In this document: piece by piece, positions 2,631 through 11,220 of the stretch
How positions within the stretch are numbered: the stretch's first letter is position 1
How the letters are laid out: each line of letters opens with the position of its first letter
Assembly: GCA_964490015.1 (NCBI GenBank)
Contig: CAZBBA010000102.1
Coordinates: 1 to 11,819, forward strand
Length of the DNA: 11,819 nucleotides
Direction: 5' to 3'
DNA from: an uncultured Rikenellaceae bacterium
GTDB taxonomy: Bacteria; Bacteroidota; Bacteroidia; Bacteroidales; Tenuifilaceae
Translations under genes and position numbers: made by a program
The notes under the pieces: generated by a model
What the model was told of the DNA's origin: nothing
Database searches by the model: none
What the model saw: only the letters and a program-made list of their open reading frames with translations

Positions 2631-2953
2631 CAATAATTGAATTGGTAATTCCAAATTTTTAACCAATTATTTTAACTGTATGGTTAAACTTTCAAAAATG
2701 TTAAACAACATAATCCAATAAAAATATTTTTTGTACATTGCTTAATATTTAATTAAATTTATAAATCTAATTAAATGAAGAAATCTGAGCACAAAGTTCA
2801 TACTTATAAGTAATATTGTGTGTAATGATTGAACACCACTAACAATAACTAGCATTAATAAAATAATATTTCTTTCATTTAAGCATAATACAAAAAAGGG
2901 AAAGCCGAAAACCTTATAATTAAATAGAGTAGGCAACTAAATCTTTAATTATT

Positions 2954-3634
2954 ATGGCAGTATTAATTATTTTACTAATTGTGGCAGCATTTATATATTT
3001 TAAGTGGATCAGAGATCCCAAAGAAGTAAGAGATCGCTGCAAAAACAGAAGCGAAGAGCAAAAAAAAGTTATAAGGTACTTTATGAGAGACGGTTGTCTA
3101 GCGCTCGGGCTTTTAAAAGATGAGGAATACGAAGCTTTGGTTGCTAAAAAAATCAAAAGTATGGATTTTAAACAAAAAGCTCTTAACAAAATCGGCCTAG
3201 ATGAGTCAGAACTTCAGGAAATTGAGCCAGTGAGCTTTGAGGGTTATTGGTTTGATGAGAAAAAAACGTTCTCAAAATATGGTAAAGATAAAAAATGGAG
3301 AAGTTCTGCATACCAGATTTCTTGGTTATTCTTTAGTTCCACACAAGTGTATTTATATCAATACACCTTTAATTTGGATGAAGATGGTAAAATGGAAAAA
3401 ACAGAAGAGTATTTCTATAAAGACATTACCAATTTCCAAACTATTTCCGACACCATCGAAACCCCCATTTGGGATCCAAAAAAAGATAAAAGTATTCTTG
3501 TAAATATTGACAAAAACCGCTTTGCAGTTACAGTTCCAGGAGACAAATTCCTCTGTTCCTTGGAACAAAATGATTATACTGAACGAGCTATTCAGGCAAT
3601 GAAAGCAAAATTACGTGAGAAGAAAAATGCCTAA
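2954..3634 (+). CDS. Hypothetical protein with an N-terminal transmembrane anchor; first gene of the low-GC cluster
   Basis: ATG at 2954, 226 aa. The N-terminus MAVLIILLIVAAFIYFKWI is a single hydrophobic helix, followed by a K/E-rich soluble domain with no motif I recognise. The stop at 3632-3634 is 3 nt before the next ATG, suggesting translational coupling. Confidence 0.6.
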   Translation: MAVLIILLIVAAFIYFKWIRDPKEVRDRCKNRSEEQKKVIRYFMRDGCLALGLLKDEEYEALVAKKIKSMDFKQKALNKIGLDESELQEIEPVSFEGYWFDEKKTFSKYGKDKKWRSSAYQISWLFFSSTQVYLYQYTFNLDEDGKMEKTEEYFYKDITNFQTISDTIETPIWDPKKDKSILVNIDKNRFAVTVPGDKFLCSLEQNDYTERAIQAMKAKLREKKNA

Positions 3635-3637
3635 AAA

Positions 3638-4081
3638 ATGAGCCTCGAAGTAATACCAAGCCAATGCGAACAGGTTATAGCGCGAGATTATTGTCAAAAT
3701 CACCCGTTGATTCGTCCCAAAACCAACATAATAACATTTGTACTATGGGTTTTGGCTATTGAAGTTATCTCAGTTGTAATAGCATACATTACTTTACGCC
3801 TGTTTCAATTTCTTGGTATTACTGCTTCTTTCAGCACAATGCATGCAATAACTTTTGCCATTGTTGTTATTTTTTTACTGAAAAAGATATGCGTATTGCT
3901 GATAGAGCTTTACCAACACTATGCGTTAGAAAAAACACGACGAAGATGCACAATGATGCCTTCTTGTTCTGAATATGCTTTGTTGGCTTTAAAAAAATAC
4001 AATGTTATCAGAGGATTGTACAAAACTTATATCCGATTGACAACGAAATGCAACGGAAGTTACATAACTGATTATCCATAA
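3638..4081 (+). CDS. YidD-family (PF01809, 'membrane protein insertion efficiency factor'-like) domain protein with an N-terminal membrane extension
   Basis: The C-terminal 80 aa read LIELYQHYALEKTRRRCTMMPSCSEYALLALKKYNVIRGLYKTYIRLTTKCNGSYITDYP. This matches the YidD hallmark ...YQ..IS....CRF.PTCS.YA.EA....G...G..L...RI.RCHP...G.DPVP (E. coli YidD recalled from memory). The N-terminal 67 aa add two hydrophobic helices. An alternative internal start ATG at 3839 (MHAITFAIVV...) would give a canonical ~80-aa YidD. Confidence 0.65.
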   Translation: MSLEVIPSQCEQVIARDYCQNHPLIRPKTNIITFVLWVLAIEVISVVIAYITLRLFQFLGITASFSTMHAITFAIVVIFLLKKICVLLIELYQHYALEKTRRRCTMMPSCSEYALLALKKYNVIRGLYKTYIRLTTKCNGSYITDYP

Positions 4082-4095
4082 AAAATACAATTAAC

Positions 4096-5316
4096 ATGGG
4101 AATATTTAATAAAAACCGCACTGACGGTGAAACATTTGATGGACAGGGTGAAGAAAGAAAAGGCCCTATTGATCGAATAAAATACAATGGAGAAAAAGAT
4201 GACCTTGTATGGAAATTTCCATACGATAATCTATCGACTGCTACTGAACTGACCGTAAACTTTAGTCAGGAAGCAGTTTTTGTAAAAGGTGGAGCTATTG
4301 CAGATATTTTTGGCCAGGGTCCACATACTTTAAGTACGAATAATATACCTGTTCTGCAAAAATTGATTAACTTACCTTTTGGTGGAAATACCCCTTTTAC
4401 TGCGGAGGTTTGGTTTGTTAATAAAACAATACGCCGTAACCTTAAATTTGGCACACCCGATCCATTTGATATTTACGACCCTCATTTTGATAACCCTATT
4501 CCTGTGCGTTCATATGGTGAATATGGCATTCAAATAACCGATTCCTCGGCATTCTTGCAGCAAATGGTGGGAACTTTGCACCTTTTTACAACGGAAGACA
4601 TTATTGATCAATTCAAATCATTAGTAGTACAAAAACTTAAAGACTCAATAAGTAAGTTTATTGTGAAAAAAGAGGTTACAGTTGTAAAAATCAATGCCTA
4701 TATTGATGAAGTAGCAAATTATGTTCGAGATGCAATAAATGAAGAATTTGCTCAATACGGTATTCGCATAGCAAGTTTTAATATTGCTTCAATAAGTTAT
4801 GACAAAGAAGATGAAAGGGTTAAGGAAATATTGGCTCAGGATGTTGAATTGAGAAGAGCTAAAACTAAAGCCCAAGAACGTAATGTGCAAGGTTTCACAT
4901 ATCATGACGAGCAAAAATTCGATGTATTGAAAACCGCCGCTGGCAATGAAGGGAGTGCAGGCCAAATGATGGGAGCAGGTATGGGACTTGGAATGGGCTT
5001 TGGTGTAGGAGGCGCATTTGGACAACAAATGGGAAATGTTGCAGGTGCCATGCAGCAACAGCCACAACAACAACAGCAACAACAGCAACAAACCCCACCA
5101 CCACCACCAACAGCAACTGTTTGGTTTGTATTAATAAACAATCAGCAGTATCAATACGACACTAATGCCCTTAGTCAATACATTCAAAGTGGTCAGGTAA
5201 CTCGCGACACATTAGTTTGGAAAGCGGGTATGGCACAATGGCTAAAAGCTAGCGAATGTCCTGAATTACAAGGATTGTTTGGCGCAACTCCGCCACCCCC
5301 ACCACCGAATTTATAA
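4096..5316 (+). CDS. SPFH/Band-7 'virion core protein-like' family protein (YdjI/COG4260-like) with Gly/Met-rich, polyQ and polyP linkers and a C-terminal DUF4339 (GYF-like) domain
   Basis: The N-terminus MGIF...DDLVWKFPYD...SQEAVFVKGGAIADIFGQGPHTLSTNNIPVLQKL...NTPFTAEVWFVN...KFGTPDP follows the pattern of the Bacillus YdjI SPFH family as I recall it (MGIF..TLVWRFP..SQVAVFVNEGQ..DVFGPG...PFKAEVYFVN). The middle contains GAGMGLGMGFGVGGAFGQQMGNVAGAM, then QQQPQQQQQQQQQ, then TPPPPPT. The C-terminus WFVLINNQQYQYDTNALSQYIQSGQVTRDTLVWKAGMAQWLKASECPELQGLF fits the DUF4339/GYF-like consensus (W.....G..GP.....L...G.I...TLVW..GM..W). Confidence 0.8.
   Translation: MGIFNKNRTDGETFDGQGEERKGPIDRIKYNGEKDDLVWKFPYDNLSTATELTVNFSQEAVFVKGGAIADIFGQGPHTLSTNNIPVLQKLINLPFGGNTPFTAEVWFVNKTIRRNLKFGTPDPFDIYDPHFDNPIPVRSYGEYGIQITDSSAFLQQMVGTLHLFTTEDIIDQFKSLVVQKLKDSISKFIVKKEVTVVKINAYIDEVANYVRDAINEEFAQYGIRIASFNIASISYDKEDERVKEILAQDVELRRAKTKAQERNVQGFTYHDEQKFDVLKTAAGNEGSAGQMMGAGMGLGMGFGVGGAFGQQMGNVAGAMQQQPQQQQQQQQQTPPPPPTATVWFVLINNQQYQYDTNALSQYIQSGQVTRDTLVWKAGMAQWLKASECPELQGLFGATPPPPPPNL
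5051..5110 (+). repeat. In-frame trinucleotide microsatellite: (CAA/CAG) x about 13 followed by (CCA) x 5
   Basis: Directly read: cagcaacagccacaacaacaacagcaacaacagcaacaa then accccaccaccaccaccaaca. It encodes the polyQ/polyP linker of the SPFH protein. A second proline tract, ccgccacccccaccaccg, occurs at about 5291-5308. Confidence 0.8.
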
Positions 5317-5335
5317 ACTTAAATTCCAGAATAAT

Positions 5336-6088
5336 ATGTCAAAAGTCAAACTCATAGCTAACATCATTTTGCCAATAGTGGTAATTGCAATTACTATTGT
5401 GTTGTTTTTTATGTTTAAACCAGTAGATGCAACGATACTGTTCTATCTTAACCTCGGATATCTCATATTTCTTGAGATAATTTTCTTTGGGTATCTAAAT
5501 GTTTTATACTCCAAAGTAAAAGATTTTTCAACCCCTTTTCTTGCTGTTTTTGGTATTTATGCGTTTTACTATATTGTAATAGGGGTTATTTTCATGTTAG
5601 TGTATTCACTTGCACTTTCTAACTTATTACCGTTAAAGCATTATATTGCCGCACTTATGGTGCTTACCGTACTTTGGATAATAATTTCGGTATTGACAGC
5701 TCAAGTGGACAGCAACTATAAAGGTACAGTAGATAAGCTTAAAGATGACGTGCATACTTTGAACTTCTACACACAAAAAATCAACCTACTCGCTAATCGT
5801 TATGAGAAGCTTTGTGCAGAAAGAGGCTTAAAATATGAGACAGACTCCAATAATAGAACAGTACTTGACCGCTTGAAAGGAAAATTAAGTTTTCTCACAC
5901 CTAATATCTTACATAGCGATACTGCAATTTCTCAATTAACTTCCTTGTTCAACAAATGCGAAGATATAATTGAAGAAACCGAATCTGCAACAGAAGATAA
6001 TCTTCCAGAAGTTCAGAAGAAAATGCAACGCTTTGTAGATAATGCCATAGCAGAGATTGATATGTTAAAAAATTTAACCAGAAGATAA
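5336..6088 (+). CDS. Integral membrane protein with 4 predicted TM helices and a C-terminal cytoplasmic coiled-coil domain
   Basis: The track ORF starts at 5279, but the N-terminus MAQLRHPHHRIYKLKFQNN overlaps the upstream gene. ATG at 5336 (MSKVKLIANIILPIVVIAITIVLFF...) is the more plausible start. Four hydrophobic stretches are followed by about 110 aa of K/E/L-rich heptad-like sequence. The stop at 6086-6088 is 3 nt before the next ATG. Confidence 0.65.
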   Translation: MSKVKLIANIILPIVVIAITIVLFFMFKPVDATILFYLNLGYLIFLEIIFFGYLNVLYSKVKDFSTPFLAVFGIYAFYYIVIGVIFMLVYSLALSNLLPLKHYIAALMVLTVLWIIISVLTAQVDSNYKGTVDKLKDDVHTLNFYTQKINLLANRYEKLCAERGLKYETDSNNRTVLDRLKGKLSFLTPNILHSDTAISQLTSLFNKCEDIIEETESATEDNLPEVQKKMQRFVDNAIAEIDMLKNLTRR

Positions 6089-6091
6089 ACA

Positions 6092-6709
6092 ATGGAAAAG
6101 GTTATTAAATTGAATTGCCCCGGTTGCGGAGCACCTGTTTCAACCGAACATAAAACTTGCATTTTTTGTAGTCGCCCAATCATTATCAGTACAATAACGG
6201 ACATTGTCTCAATGCCAACCCCCGAAGTGAATAAATATGCTAACGCATACCGTAAAGAGTTGGTGACTAATCCCGATAATAAAGACCTGAATATGTCTCT
6301 TGCAATGTGCTATTTCAAACTAAAAATGTATGATAAAGCTTCAGAAGTATTTGAAAAAGCCGTTGAAGATAACTTCGAGGATGCAGATAGATTCTTCTAT
6401 GCAGCAGTTAACTTGCTTAAAGGACAAAAGGCGTTTGTTACACCGCGGGCTAACATTGATAAAGCCTTGGAGTACCTAAATGCTGCTAATATGATTGAAA
6501 GCAAGGCTATTTATCATTACTTTCTGGCTTACATCAAAAAAGACTATTTTGACAGAAAATATCTTAACATTAAACCAAACTGGGAGGAGGAGTTAAATAA
6601 TGCTATCGATTTAGGTTTGACAAATGAAGAGGCCTATCAATTGTTCGAATTATTGGGAGTTGAACAACCTGAATGTTTACAATCAGCAGAGGAGGAGGAA
6701 ATAGGTTAA
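6092..6709 (+). CDS. Zinc-ribbon (CPxCG...CxxC) plus TPR-like helical-repeat protein with an acidic C-terminus
   Basis: The N-terminus MEKVIKLNCPGCGAPVSTEHKTCIFCSRP has four Cys in zinc-ribbon geometry (C-x2-C-x12-C-x2-C). The remainder (NMSLAMCYFKLKMYDKASEVFEKAVEDN...ALEYLNAANMIESKAIYHYFLAYIKK) reads as TPR-like helical hairpins. It ends ...SAEEEEIG. Confidence 0.7.
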   Translation: MEKVIKLNCPGCGAPVSTEHKTCIFCSRPIIISTITDIVSMPTPEVNKYANAYRKELVTNPDNKDLNMSLAMCYFKLKMYDKASEVFEKAVEDNFEDADRFFYAAVNLLKGQKAFVTPRANIDKALEYLNAANMIESKAIYHYFLAYIKKDYFDRKYLNIKPNWEEELNNAIDLGLTNEEAYQLFELLGVEQPECLQSAEEEEIG

Positions 6710-9624: not shown

Positions 9625-10548
9625 TTATACTCTGATACGTTCTATATTCAACTCGTCCAAATTCATGTTGCCCACACCCATCTCGTGAGCAATTTTTATA
9701 TGGCCAATTTCGGCTGGTTCTACTCCAAAAATCTTTGCAGCAGCAGCATCAGCAGCAACCATATCGGTAGAGATTATAAGCGATTTTTTCATTACCAAAT
9801 CAGCTTGACTCACTCCCCGCGGGCCATTACGAGTCATAACCCTATAGGCATCAACCACATTTAAATCGGGTTTGCGCCAGGTGGCAAAATCGGCAATGCA
9901 CTGGTGTAGATCGTTCCTATGCCAGAAACGTCTATCCCAAACAATGCCCATAAGATTCTTTAAACATATGGTAACCTTAGCAGAGCTATGATGCTTTAGC
10001 ACGGGAACATTGATAAATACATCGGAATTGAGAATAAGCTCGTGAACCTTAGCCTCGGTTAGTCTTTTCCCGTTTGCTATCGTAACTCCCTTATAGTAGT
10101 TCTCGGTGTTGCCGGGGACAATTTTGCCTCCCGCCTTTTTCACAGCCTCCTCAATTCCACTATTGGCATAGCACCTATTCCAGGTATCGCAGGTATTATC
10201 GAATACAAAAACATCTTTTGCTCCAGCCTGTAAGCATTGCTCAACAATTCGTGCCACAAGATGTGGATTTGTATTAGCACCCAGCTCTTCGGGCGTATCC
10301 CAACCAATGTTAGGCTTTACCACCACAGTTTGCCCTCTCTTCACAAACTTTCCCATTCCACCCAAGGCAGCAATTGCCTTATCGAACATTTGGGCTGGCT
10401 CACCTCCCATCACGGCAACCAAATCGAATGGTTTACTGGGGTTTGGCTTACTAGAACTAGCCAGGCCATTTGCGCCACTTACATTTAAAAAGGCACCTGC
10501 CATCAATCCGGCACCTAACCCTTTTTTCAAAAAATCTCTTCGCTTCAT
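9625..10548 (-). CDS. Twin-arginine (Tat) signal-bearing DUF362-like protein, tightly coupled (10 nt) to the downstream polyferredoxin
   Basis: The track start at 10644 is TTG. ATG at 10548 gives MKRRDFLKKGLGAGLMAGAFLNVSGANG, a textbook Tat signal (RRxFLK). The body (VVVKPNIGWDTPEELGANTNPHLVARIVEQCLQAGAKDVFVFDNTCD...) resembles the DUF362 (PF04015) proteins that pair with ferredoxins in Bacteroidetes. This is from memory and not verified. Confidence 0.55.
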   Translation of the reverse strand: MKRRDFLKKGLGAGLMAGAFLNVSGANGLASSSKPNPSKPFDLVAVMGGEPAQMFDKAIAALGGMGKFVKRGQTVVVKPNIGWDTPEELGANTNPHLVARIVEQCLQAGAKDVFVFDNTCDTWNRCYANSGIEEAVKKAGGKIVPGNTENYYKGVTIANGKRLTEAKVHELILNSDVFINVPVLKHHSSAKVTICLKNLMGIVWDRRFWHRNDLHQCIADFATWRKPDLNVVDAYRVMTRNGPRGVSQADLVMKKSLIISTDMVAADAAAAKIFGVEPAEIGHIKIAHEMGVGNMNLDELNIERIRV

Positions 10549-10650
10549 ACGCCTCAGGTCTTTTGTTGATATACATGCATTTGATGAAGATTTTGAATCG
10601 TAGTTTAACCGATATTTGGCATTAAAGATACGAAAAACGCGCAAATAGCA

Positions 10651-10658
10651 TATATTTG
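10651..10658 (+). promoter_or_regulatory. TATATTTG -7-type promoter element upstream of the 10717 gene
   Basis: It exactly matches the Bacteroidetes -7 consensus TAnnTTTG and lies 58 nt upstream of the ATG at 10717. There is no well-spaced TTTG -33 element, so this is a weak call. Confidence 0.3.
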
Positions 10659-10716
10659 TACCCTATTGCTTTACTGCGTATCAAAAAGGAAAAGTAACCC
10701 TCAAAATTCTAAAAAG

Positions 10717-11220
10717 ATGGCATCTATAGCGTTAACTTCCAAGAAAACAATAGGCTACGTAATATTCGACATTCTGGCGTTGGCCTTTATATACTTAGTG
10801 CCTACAATTTCGCATATGCTCAGTTTTCCACTCTATTTGATAGAACCCATGCGCATTGCGCTAATCCTTGCGCTGGTGCATACCACCAAGAGAAATGCGT
10901 ACATAATTGCATTATCCCTTCCATTATTCAGCTACTTGGTGTCGGCGCACCCTGTTTTTTACAAGATGTTACTGATTTCGGGCGAGCTGGTGCTGAATGT
11001 ATGGATTTTCTACTTTTTGCTCGGCAAGACTAAAAACGCATTTTTGTCGATTATAGGCTCAATTATTGCCTGCAAAGCCATCTACTATATGGCTAAGTTT
11101 GTAGCTGTTGCCCTAATTTTTAATTCGGGCGAGGGAATTATTTCCACACCGCTTTACATTCAACTTGCAACAACTATTGTGTTTAGCGTGTATCTTGGGT
11201 TGATGTTTAGGAGAAGGTAG
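10717..11220 (+). CDS. Small polytopic membrane protein (about 5 TM helices); possibly an ECF-type substrate-capture (S) component or similar small transporter subunit
   Basis: The track ORF begins at TTG 10666. The first ATG is at 10717 (MASIALTSKKTIGYVIFDILALAFIYLVPTISHM...), giving 167 aa. The protein is almost entirely hydrophobic helices. The family assignment is a guess based on size and topology only. Confidence 0.55.
   Translation: MASIALTSKKTIGYVIFDILALAFIYLVPTISHMLSFPLYLIEPMRIALILALVHTTKRNAYIIALSLPLFSYLVSAHPVFYKMLLISGELVLNVWIFYFLLGKTKNAFLSIIGSIIACKAIYYMAKFVAVALIFNSGEGIISTPLYIQLATTIVFSVYLGLMFRRR

Follow-up and report, generated by a model that had tools for sequence, protein, structure and literature searches.

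An 11,819-nucleotide (nt) stretch of contig CAZBBA010000102.1 from an uncultured Rikenellaceae bacterium, referred to here as the window, carries five co-directional genes (A to E) that form one conserved operon of non-enzymatic, membrane-associated proteins. The third gene encodes a soluble SPFH protein, and, judged from the sequences of its products, the operon most likely forms a scaffold beneath the membrane. The genes and the hairpin at the 3′ end of the operon are as follows.

2954-3634, + strand, gene A, open reading frame (ORF) of 226 amino acids (aa)
3638-4081, + strand, gene B, ORF of 147 aa
4096-5316, + strand, gene C, ORF of 406 aa
5336-6088, + strand, gene D, ORF of 250 aa counted from ATG
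6092-6709, + strand, gene E, ORF of 205 aa
6740-6785, + strand, terminator-like hairpin, from its folding energy against shuffled sequences

The ORFs are exactly those described in the original prediction, an annotation made from the letters of the window that had proposed a single operon with spacers of 3, 14, 19, and 3 nt (A/B, B/C, C/D, and D/E). The ATG start of D is that of independent gene calls on the source contig; the mechanical ORF list begins at a TTG at 5279. The 3′ hairpin has a minimum free energy of −20.7 kcal/mol (z = −6.9), with 0 of 200 shuffled sequences equally stable, and is followed by a U-rich stretch. An AT-rich region of 358 nt lies 5′ of A, and the block as a whole has a GC content of 0.359 versus 0.438 for the remaining window, so that its compositional distinctness, also proposed from the letters, holds. 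As anticipated, no enzymatic domain is found in any of the five products in Pfam, NCBIfam, PDB, or structure comparisons. Hydropathy analysis gives one transmembrane (TM) helix in A, two in B, four in D, and none in C or E, and the positive-inside rule, read from the sequences, predicts that the globular parts of A, B, and D face the cytoplasm.

We compared the operon with 80 loci from GTDB species genomes and seven metagenome loci (87 in all, designated by L numbers). The 1308 ORFs called in these loci and the window were clustered. Ranked by size, the clusters are headed by C (83), E (58), D (52), A (50), and B (33), while each flanking gene of the window is a singleton cluster. Because the large clusters are exactly the five genes and the flanks are singletons, the linkage lies well beyond chance. 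Gene order is maintained down to ~45-57% identity for C (tblastn), with same-order loci in Prevotellaceae, Bacteroidaceae, Muribaculaceae, Barnesiella, Alistipes, and a Psychroflexus bin. In Bacteroidota and Fibrobacter the genes are arranged in three ways: (I) A-B-C-D-E, at times without B, the five-gene form being present in ~35 loci; (II) C-D-E-A, in Prolixibacteraceae, Lentimicrobiaceae, and Flavobacteriaceae, with a Fibrobacter version C-x243-E-A; and (III) C-D-Elong, in 13 loci. Gene B is restricted to arrangement I and sits between A and C wherever it is present.

Elong is a natural fusion of E and A. At 560-670 aa, it joins a zinc (Zn) ribbon and tetratricopeptide repeats (TPR) to an acidic linker, two TM segments, and a homolog of the PH-like domain of A; hhalign relates its E part to E with a probability of 100% and its A-like domain to A with 91.7% (E = 7.6e-7). 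Fusion loci include L003 (8987-10744), L014 (8107-10056), L020, L036, L041, L047, L056, L061, L072, L077, and L078. The fusion connects A with E, which predicts that the two are linked physically or functionally, and makes A part of the core, which thus consists of the SPFH protein, a four-TM partner, a Zn-ribbon adaptor, and a PH-like anchor. The original prediction had treated both the YidD-like gene (B) and the TM-anchored product (A) as extras; this stands for the YidD gene, a lineage-specific Bacteroidales addition, and falls for A. The suggestion that the five genes lie together by chance and share no joint function retains next to no probability, being ruled out by the cluster counts, the conserved order, and the fusion; the converse expectation, that the five families would co-localize in related genomes, is borne out by the 87-locus set.

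Three records with unexpected titles, Acutalibacteraceae (L014), Erysipelotrichaceae (L019), and Ottowia (L062), carry a Bacteroidota-type C (59-63% identity; 48% in L062), and the architecture of L014 is that of the Segatella copri locus L015. These titles probably reflect genome-bin contamination.

The association of C with its partners extends beyond Bacteroidota. A Zn-ribbon protein follows C in 19 of 20 loci from Firmicutes, Synergistota, and Burkholderiales, and a D-like protein with four TM helices and a coiled coil follows it in 13 of the same 20. D has a homolog in the Firmicutes membrane partner c7 (hhalign 96.2%, E = 2.7e-9 over 190 columns), and the Zn ribbons of E and Firmicutes c5 align at 96.7%. 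Among Burkholderiales partners, c18 combines a Zn ribbon with TPR, and c17 reaches a borderline 51.8% against D in hhalign; hhalign comparisons of A with c5 and c16 are negative. Proteins of the TM-less Band_7_1 type are therefore encoded next to a Zn-ribbon protein almost always and next to a membrane partner usually.

Profile searches uphold the reading of C as an SPFH protein with a DUF4339/GYF-like end. Pfam Band_7_1 (PF13421) matches residues 38-241 at E = 1.9e-46 with 158.8 bits (cut-off 24) and spans profile positions 1-201 of 211, which places C in the YdjI-like SPFH group (COG4260), and GYF_2 matches at 1.6e-14. The protein is segmented in the following order.

Residues 1-24, N-terminal peptide
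Residues 38-241, Band_7_1 domain
Residues ~286-312, Gly/Met-rich hydrophobic stretch
Polyglutamine (polyQ) tract, then a polyproline run
Residues 343-391, GYF_2 domain
Second polyproline run

C is predicted to be soluble, as no 19-mer attains a Kyte-Doolittle value of 1.6. Its Gly/Met-rich stretch is nearly invariant across phyla and can serve as a search pattern, and the prolines on either side of GYF_2 are invariant in a 15-sequence alignment. C has 2173 homologs, mainly in Bacteroidales and including the termite-gut Azobacteroides and Symbiothrix; Band_7_1 and GYF_2 occur together in all of the top 120. The tail differs by lineage: it may be GYF_2, a set of several Zn ribbons, or a stretch with a weak SHOCT match below threshold. 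The sole PDB match for C concerns its GYF part, which resembles a Myxococcus gliding-motility protein (7z3c, 3e-4). The N-terminal peptide (window 4096-4167), with invariant G11, T13, D15, G16, Q17, G18, R21, and G23, is present in every Bacteroidota locus with E and A and absent from the C proteins of Firmicutes, Proteobacteria, and Fibrobacter; it is a candidate docking motif for the TPR of E or the PH-like domain of A. The polyQ tract (window 5047-5085) differs in length among close relatives, C having 406 aa here and 409 aa in L088-L090, and, being encoded by a simple repeat, may vary by slippage.

The membrane partner D contains TM helices at residues 2-26, 33-59, 66-94, and 100-~122, the last of which continues into a cytoplasmic helical bundle up to residue 249; its AlphaFold2 model is accordingly all-helical, with four TM helices and the bundle. 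No TPM_phosphatase match is found in D with Pfam at E ≤ 0.1. Of 59 D-like proteins, 39 retain an intramembrane glutamate within TM2 (Glu47, window 5474-5476), those from Firmicutes among them. A Prevotella subgroup of D (189-207 aa) has neither TM1 nor the TM2 glutamate. D is the fastest-evolving of the five, with 28% identity where C has 57%, and a profile search with D across 1.84 billion representatives recovers only 156 members.

E is soluble and had been described as a zinc-ribbon/TPR protein, a description that both its halves corroborate. Cys9, Cys12, Cys23, and Cys26 form the N-terminal Zn ribbon, whose CxxC...CxxC pattern is conserved in the family (consensus Cp.CGA.v....k.CeyC) and gives a weak Zn_Ribbon_1 match under the Pfam cut-off. 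TPR-like repeats occupy residues ~47-150; Pfam TPR_19, TPR_1, and TPR_2 score slightly over their cut-offs, and the only PDB match of E is that of this part to consensus TPR proteins (7.6e-11).

A begins with a TM helix (residues 2-19) and a helical linker (23-80), which lead into a cytoplasmic PH-like β-sandwich with a C-terminal helix (~93-225). The seven strands of the sandwich and the capping helix conform to the PH-like fold.

In B, TM helices at ~31-55 and 66-92 precede a cytoplasmic YidD domain at residues 82-140, and the 80-residue N-terminal extension holds both helices. The assignment to YidD, made earlier from the letters, is substantiated by Pfam (PF01809; 5.7e-13, 48.9 bits, cut-off 27) and by NCBIfam (TIGR00278; 47.6 bits, cut-off 40); a PDB sequence search with B gave no match. 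Cys104, Cys110, and Cys138 are kept in at least 90% of 30 family members, whose consensus reads lYQrYApE..Rr.C...PtCSEYA...Rl..tC.g.y.iDyP.

How might these proteins act together? In the reading that we prefer, to which we assign an even chance, the soluble, YdjI-type SPFH protein C would be the center of a non-enzymatic complex located at the inner membrane on its cytoplasmic side. D, with its four TM helices and bundle, the single-pass, PH-like A, and the two-pass YidD protein B would be embedded in the membrane with their globular parts in the cytoplasm. D, aided by the Zn-ribbon/TPR adaptor E, would bring C to the membrane much as SamG/SamH (YdjG/YdjH) do for SamI (YdjI), and E would link C and D to A. 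C may oligomerize as SPFH proteins do, and its GYF domain, set between invariant polyproline runs, could cross-link subunits or catch proline-rich clients. The resulting scaffold or microdomain under the membrane would stabilize or monitor it, and in Bacteroidales it would additionally hold a YidD-type insertion helper at the site. Expression would be controlled by a structured 5′ leader in some lineages and by an adjacent Xre-type regulator in others.

We favor this reading because each of the five products is either a membrane anchor or a module for protein binding, because their linkage is conserved though the flanks are unrelated, and because E and A are naturally fused in Elong. It is also favored because the Zn-ribbon and D-like partners recur outside Bacteroidota at the frequencies given above, because C is TM-less like YdjI, which needs YdjG/H to reach the membrane, and because a role of YidD in Sec/YidC-associated insertion is on record (Yu et al. 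2011, as listed in PMC8082313).

Several observations weigh against the proposed scaffold. HflK/C and flotillin form cage-type oligomers; C has only a short helix after its SPFH domain, so oligomers of that type cannot be assumed for it. Neither PspA nor another effector is linked to the module. In 39 of 54 loci the module is poorer in GC than the flanking DNA, and markedly so in six of these (L038, L043, L053, L055, L059, and L068); in five independent loci its neighborhood includes an Abi_2/AbiF gene or abiF RNA motif, which adjoins the module in two. The low GC content and the proximity of Abi_2/AbiF are as compatible with an accessory function that spreads horizontally as with housekeeping membrane maintenance.

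These last two observations bear directly on an anti-phage or abortive-infection function, in which the SPFH scaffold would restrain membrane-active partners until infection and their release would then depolarize or permeabilize the membrane, with the four-TM helical-bundle protein D and the YidD (‘haemolytic’) domain of B as candidate effectors. The low GC content of the module, in the window as in the 39 loci, speaks for it, as do flanks that are unrelated in every genus and the Abi-type neighbors of L001/L008, L037, L050, L060, and L042. In L001 an Abi_2/AbiD-F-type gene (9677-10606) is followed by a PIN gene (10618-11169), which also points to defense; related genes occupy L037 3257-4180 and L050 3329-4228, L060 has a 301-aa ORF 5′ of A, and L042 carries the abiF RNA motif alone (RF03085, 6334-6370), ~1.8 kb downstream of the module. 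They adjoin the module in L001/L008 and L060 and lie ~0.6-0.7 kb upstream in L037 and L050; these are raw counts without a background frequency, and such recurrent neighbors were counted by hand because cluster-based de-duplication undercounts them. Further points on the same side are an integrase and mobile-element genes after the module in L003/L004, an insertion sequence (IS) element at its left boundary in the closest relative, and an Xre-type helix-turn-helix (HTH) gene upstream in Bacteroides loci.

Direct searches, however, lend no support to the phage-related or defense function that the original prediction had listed among its options. PADLOC-DB v2 contains no meaningful match for the five proteins (best E = 0.002-0.017, with no matched stretch for C), nor does PHROGs, and a tblastn search of 50,697 phage records with C returns only partial matches at 23-28% identity and no full-length C. 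Plasmid matches are mainly to chromids; the single full-length plasmid match of C is ‘plasmid 5’ of Bacteroides finegoldii (NZ_OY725907.1, L094), in which the module is surrounded by obgE, adk, hpt, dinB, and pgeF and which thus looks like a chromosome fragment. In a PADLOC scan of the first of two batches of flanking proteins (125 of them; the second batch numbers 124), ~6 match defense models, several of them generic (SNF2 helicase, methyltransferases), which is too few for a defense island. The neighbors are instead mostly housekeeping genes (gltX, gap, obgE, adk, hpt, and dnaA), and none of the usual effector domains, such as nuclease, NADase, or protease, is present in the five proteins. 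We consider a defense function unlikely.

The presence of B raises another possibility, namely that the operon encodes a hub for membrane-protein insertion or quality control in which the TM-tethered YidD paralog is central and the SPFH scaffold corrals particular inner-membrane proteins. HflK/C together with FtsH and YidC offers a precedent for such an arrangement. B scores above the curated cut-offs for YidD with its three conserved cysteines intact, its gene is translationally tight with A and C through the 3-nt and 14-nt spacers, and it is retained in ~30 loci (Prevotellaceae, Bacteroidaceae, Muribaculaceae, Barnesiella, and others); the insertion role attributed to YidD by the Yu et al. 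2011 entry in PMC8082313 points the same way. B is nonetheless absent from the C-D-E-A and C-D-(E~A) loci, from all non-Bacteroidota systems, and even from the A-C-D-E loci L001, L017, L026, L053, and L059, and no insertase, Sec component, or protease is linked to the module in any locus. Since arrangements II and III and the other phyla lack it, B cannot define the core function, and a hub organized around it strikes us as rather doubtful.

Upstream of A, the operon carries a recognizable RNA element.

2895-2935, + strand, 5′ leader RNA, Rfam DUF805b (RF02914, cis-regulatory), found with cmscan

The match scores 43.6 bits, above the gathering score of 35.6 (window-wide E = 7.9e-10), with 35 of 35 model positions matched. 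The leader consists of a hairpin, AAGG-GAAAGCCGAAAA-CCUU, followed by AAAUAGAGUAGGCA, and its 3′ end lies 18 nt before the ATG of A. The hairpin is thermodynamically weak. DNA homology with the closest relative begins at 2858, so the leader is common to both and the sequence 5′ of it is not. The Rfam family is named after genes for DUF805 membrane proteins; none of the five genes here matches DUF805 in Pfam. The downstream gene set thus differs, which would widen the range of genes tied to this orphan motif.

Arrangement-I loci elsewhere have related leaders 5′ of A with a GCCGAA element and an AGGCA box, and in 15 other loci none reaches the Rfam gathering threshold for DUF805b. Among the short-hairpin leaders, stem changes judged by eye are compensatory (AAGG/CCTT versus AGTCT/AGACT); RNAalifold, given a faulty MAFFT alignment of the six, yields no structure for them. 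For the long-range-stem leaders (15 sequences), RNAalifold yields five pairs, four of them with compensatory changes. Variant leaders lie ~100 nt 5′ of A in L005 (5810-5880), L023 (211-281), L026-L029, L033, L035, L037, L040, L042, L044, L048, L051, and L053. They run from a 5′ strand (GGCUCUCAC or CUCCCAC) through CGYCUUUUU and a ~40-nt loop ending in GCCGAW to a complementary 3′ strand and an AUAGGCA box. Their GCC and GGC elements (CCC and GGG in L013, L016, and L018) may pair with each other and, as seen by eye, the 5′ strand can alternatively pair with a segment farther upstream to give a terminator-like hairpin and U run. A small Xre-type HTH gene (Pfam HTH_3, 3.6e-6) lies immediately 5′ of A in L011 (4409-4726), L025, L054, L059, L074, and L094 (7423-7743); these loci belong to Bacteroides, Barnesiella, and others, the leader motif is absent there, and the gene may be an alternative regulator.

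A more far-reaching proposal, improbable in our estimate, would join these elements into one: a TM-less, YdjI-type SPFH protein with a Zn ribbon, and usually a four-TM/bundle protein, would be an unrecognized, PspA-independent system for membrane-damage sensing, repair, or immunity across phyla, to which Bacteroidota added a PH-like anchor and a tethered YidD paralog, and in which a leader switch of the DUF805b class would answer a membrane-related signal.

On the left of the module, the window carries a TetR gene and one further upstream gene, and on the right an asparaginase, a 4Fe-4S protein, and a DUF362 protein, all on the minus strand. In the closest relative, DNA homology spans window 2858-6696 at 83%, the shared downstream genes are 74% identical, and the left side holds an IS (DDE_3 and HTH; L088 4626-5544) and other genes. 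From these identities and the differing left side, the module is better conserved than its surroundings, with a rearrangement point at its left boundary.

SPFH proteins are universal membrane organizers, and work on the TM-less YdjI branch has so far been confined to Bacillus subtilis, always in conjunction with PspA. The present comparison shows that this branch has its own conserved partners in many phyla and that a four-to-five-protein version is common in gut and termite-gut Bacteroidales, including Bacteroides finegoldii and Segatella copri, which can be cultured. The comparison also gives a fold to a family of more than 1000 ‘hypothetical’ proteins (A), recognizes in B a YidD paralog tethered to the membrane, and connects an Rfam leader motif that had been an orphan with a specific operon. 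The module thereby offers testable handles on membrane homeostasis in an important commensal group.

Literature searches combining Band_7_1/COG4260/DUF4339, SPFH and phage defense, and SPFH, Bacteroides, and YidD found no description of the operon, and we therefore set it beside the known systems that it resembles. In SPFH/NfeD operon pairs (stomatin-NfeD, QmcA-YbbJ, YqiK-YqiJ, and FloA-NfeD2), an SPFH protein is likewise co-transcribed with a membrane-anchored partner that bears a small cytoplasmic β-domain, a place that A would take here. The canonical YidD, of ~70-100 aa and free of TM helices, is encoded beside yidC. In B the domain of this YidD of the rnpA-yidD-yidC locus is recognizable at scores above both the Pfam and the NCBIfam threshold, and its three conserved cysteines are present; unlike the short, stand-alone protein of the yidC context, B has 147 aa, two added TM helices, and a place inside an SPFH operon.

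The closest parallel, already drawn in the original prediction, is pspA-ydjGHI (pspA-samGHI) of Bacillus subtilis, which we compared through published domain architectures rather than the YdjG, YdjH, and YdjI sequences. YdjI, a Band-7 protein (10.1101/2021.02.15.431232, the preprint version of PMC9239133), is soluble, localizes via the membrane proteins YdjG/H, and recruits PspA (PMC8581546; 10.64898/2026.02.06.704340); YdjG consists of two Zn ribbons, an NTF2-like domain, and a TM segment, YdjH is a TPM-domain membrane protein, and YdjI joins a band-7 domain to a Zn ribbon (PMC11237479). Both C and YdjI are TM-less SPFH proteins with a low-complexity segment and a small C-terminal binding module, and both are co-encoded with a Zn-ribbon protein and one or more membrane proteins, which in Bacillus recruit the SPFH protein. 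The general logic of the parallel thus stands, whereas a one-for-one match does not. The SPFH gene is first in the core here and last there, C terminates in GYF_2 instead of Zn ribbons, D has a helical bundle and lacks the TPM domain of YdjH, and E, with one ribbon, TPR, and no TM segment, has only the ribbon in common with YdjG. As had been noted from the letters, pspA is missing: none occurs in the window or source contig stretch, and an approximate E. coli PspA query, of limited sensitivity, finds no PspA-like ORF in the 87 loci at a phmmer E ≤ 1. By these architectures, C appears to be the only one of the five proteins homologous to a pspA-ydjGHI component, and the module seems to follow the logic of a soluble SPFH protein, a membrane receptor, and a Zn ribbon without being the ydjGHI ortholog set. 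Taken together, these comparisons indicate that the operon is a conserved, non-enzymatic SPFH membrane module, a variant of the YdjI-type theme that adds to it a PH-like anchor (A) and a tethered YidD protein (B) not seen in the Bacillus system.

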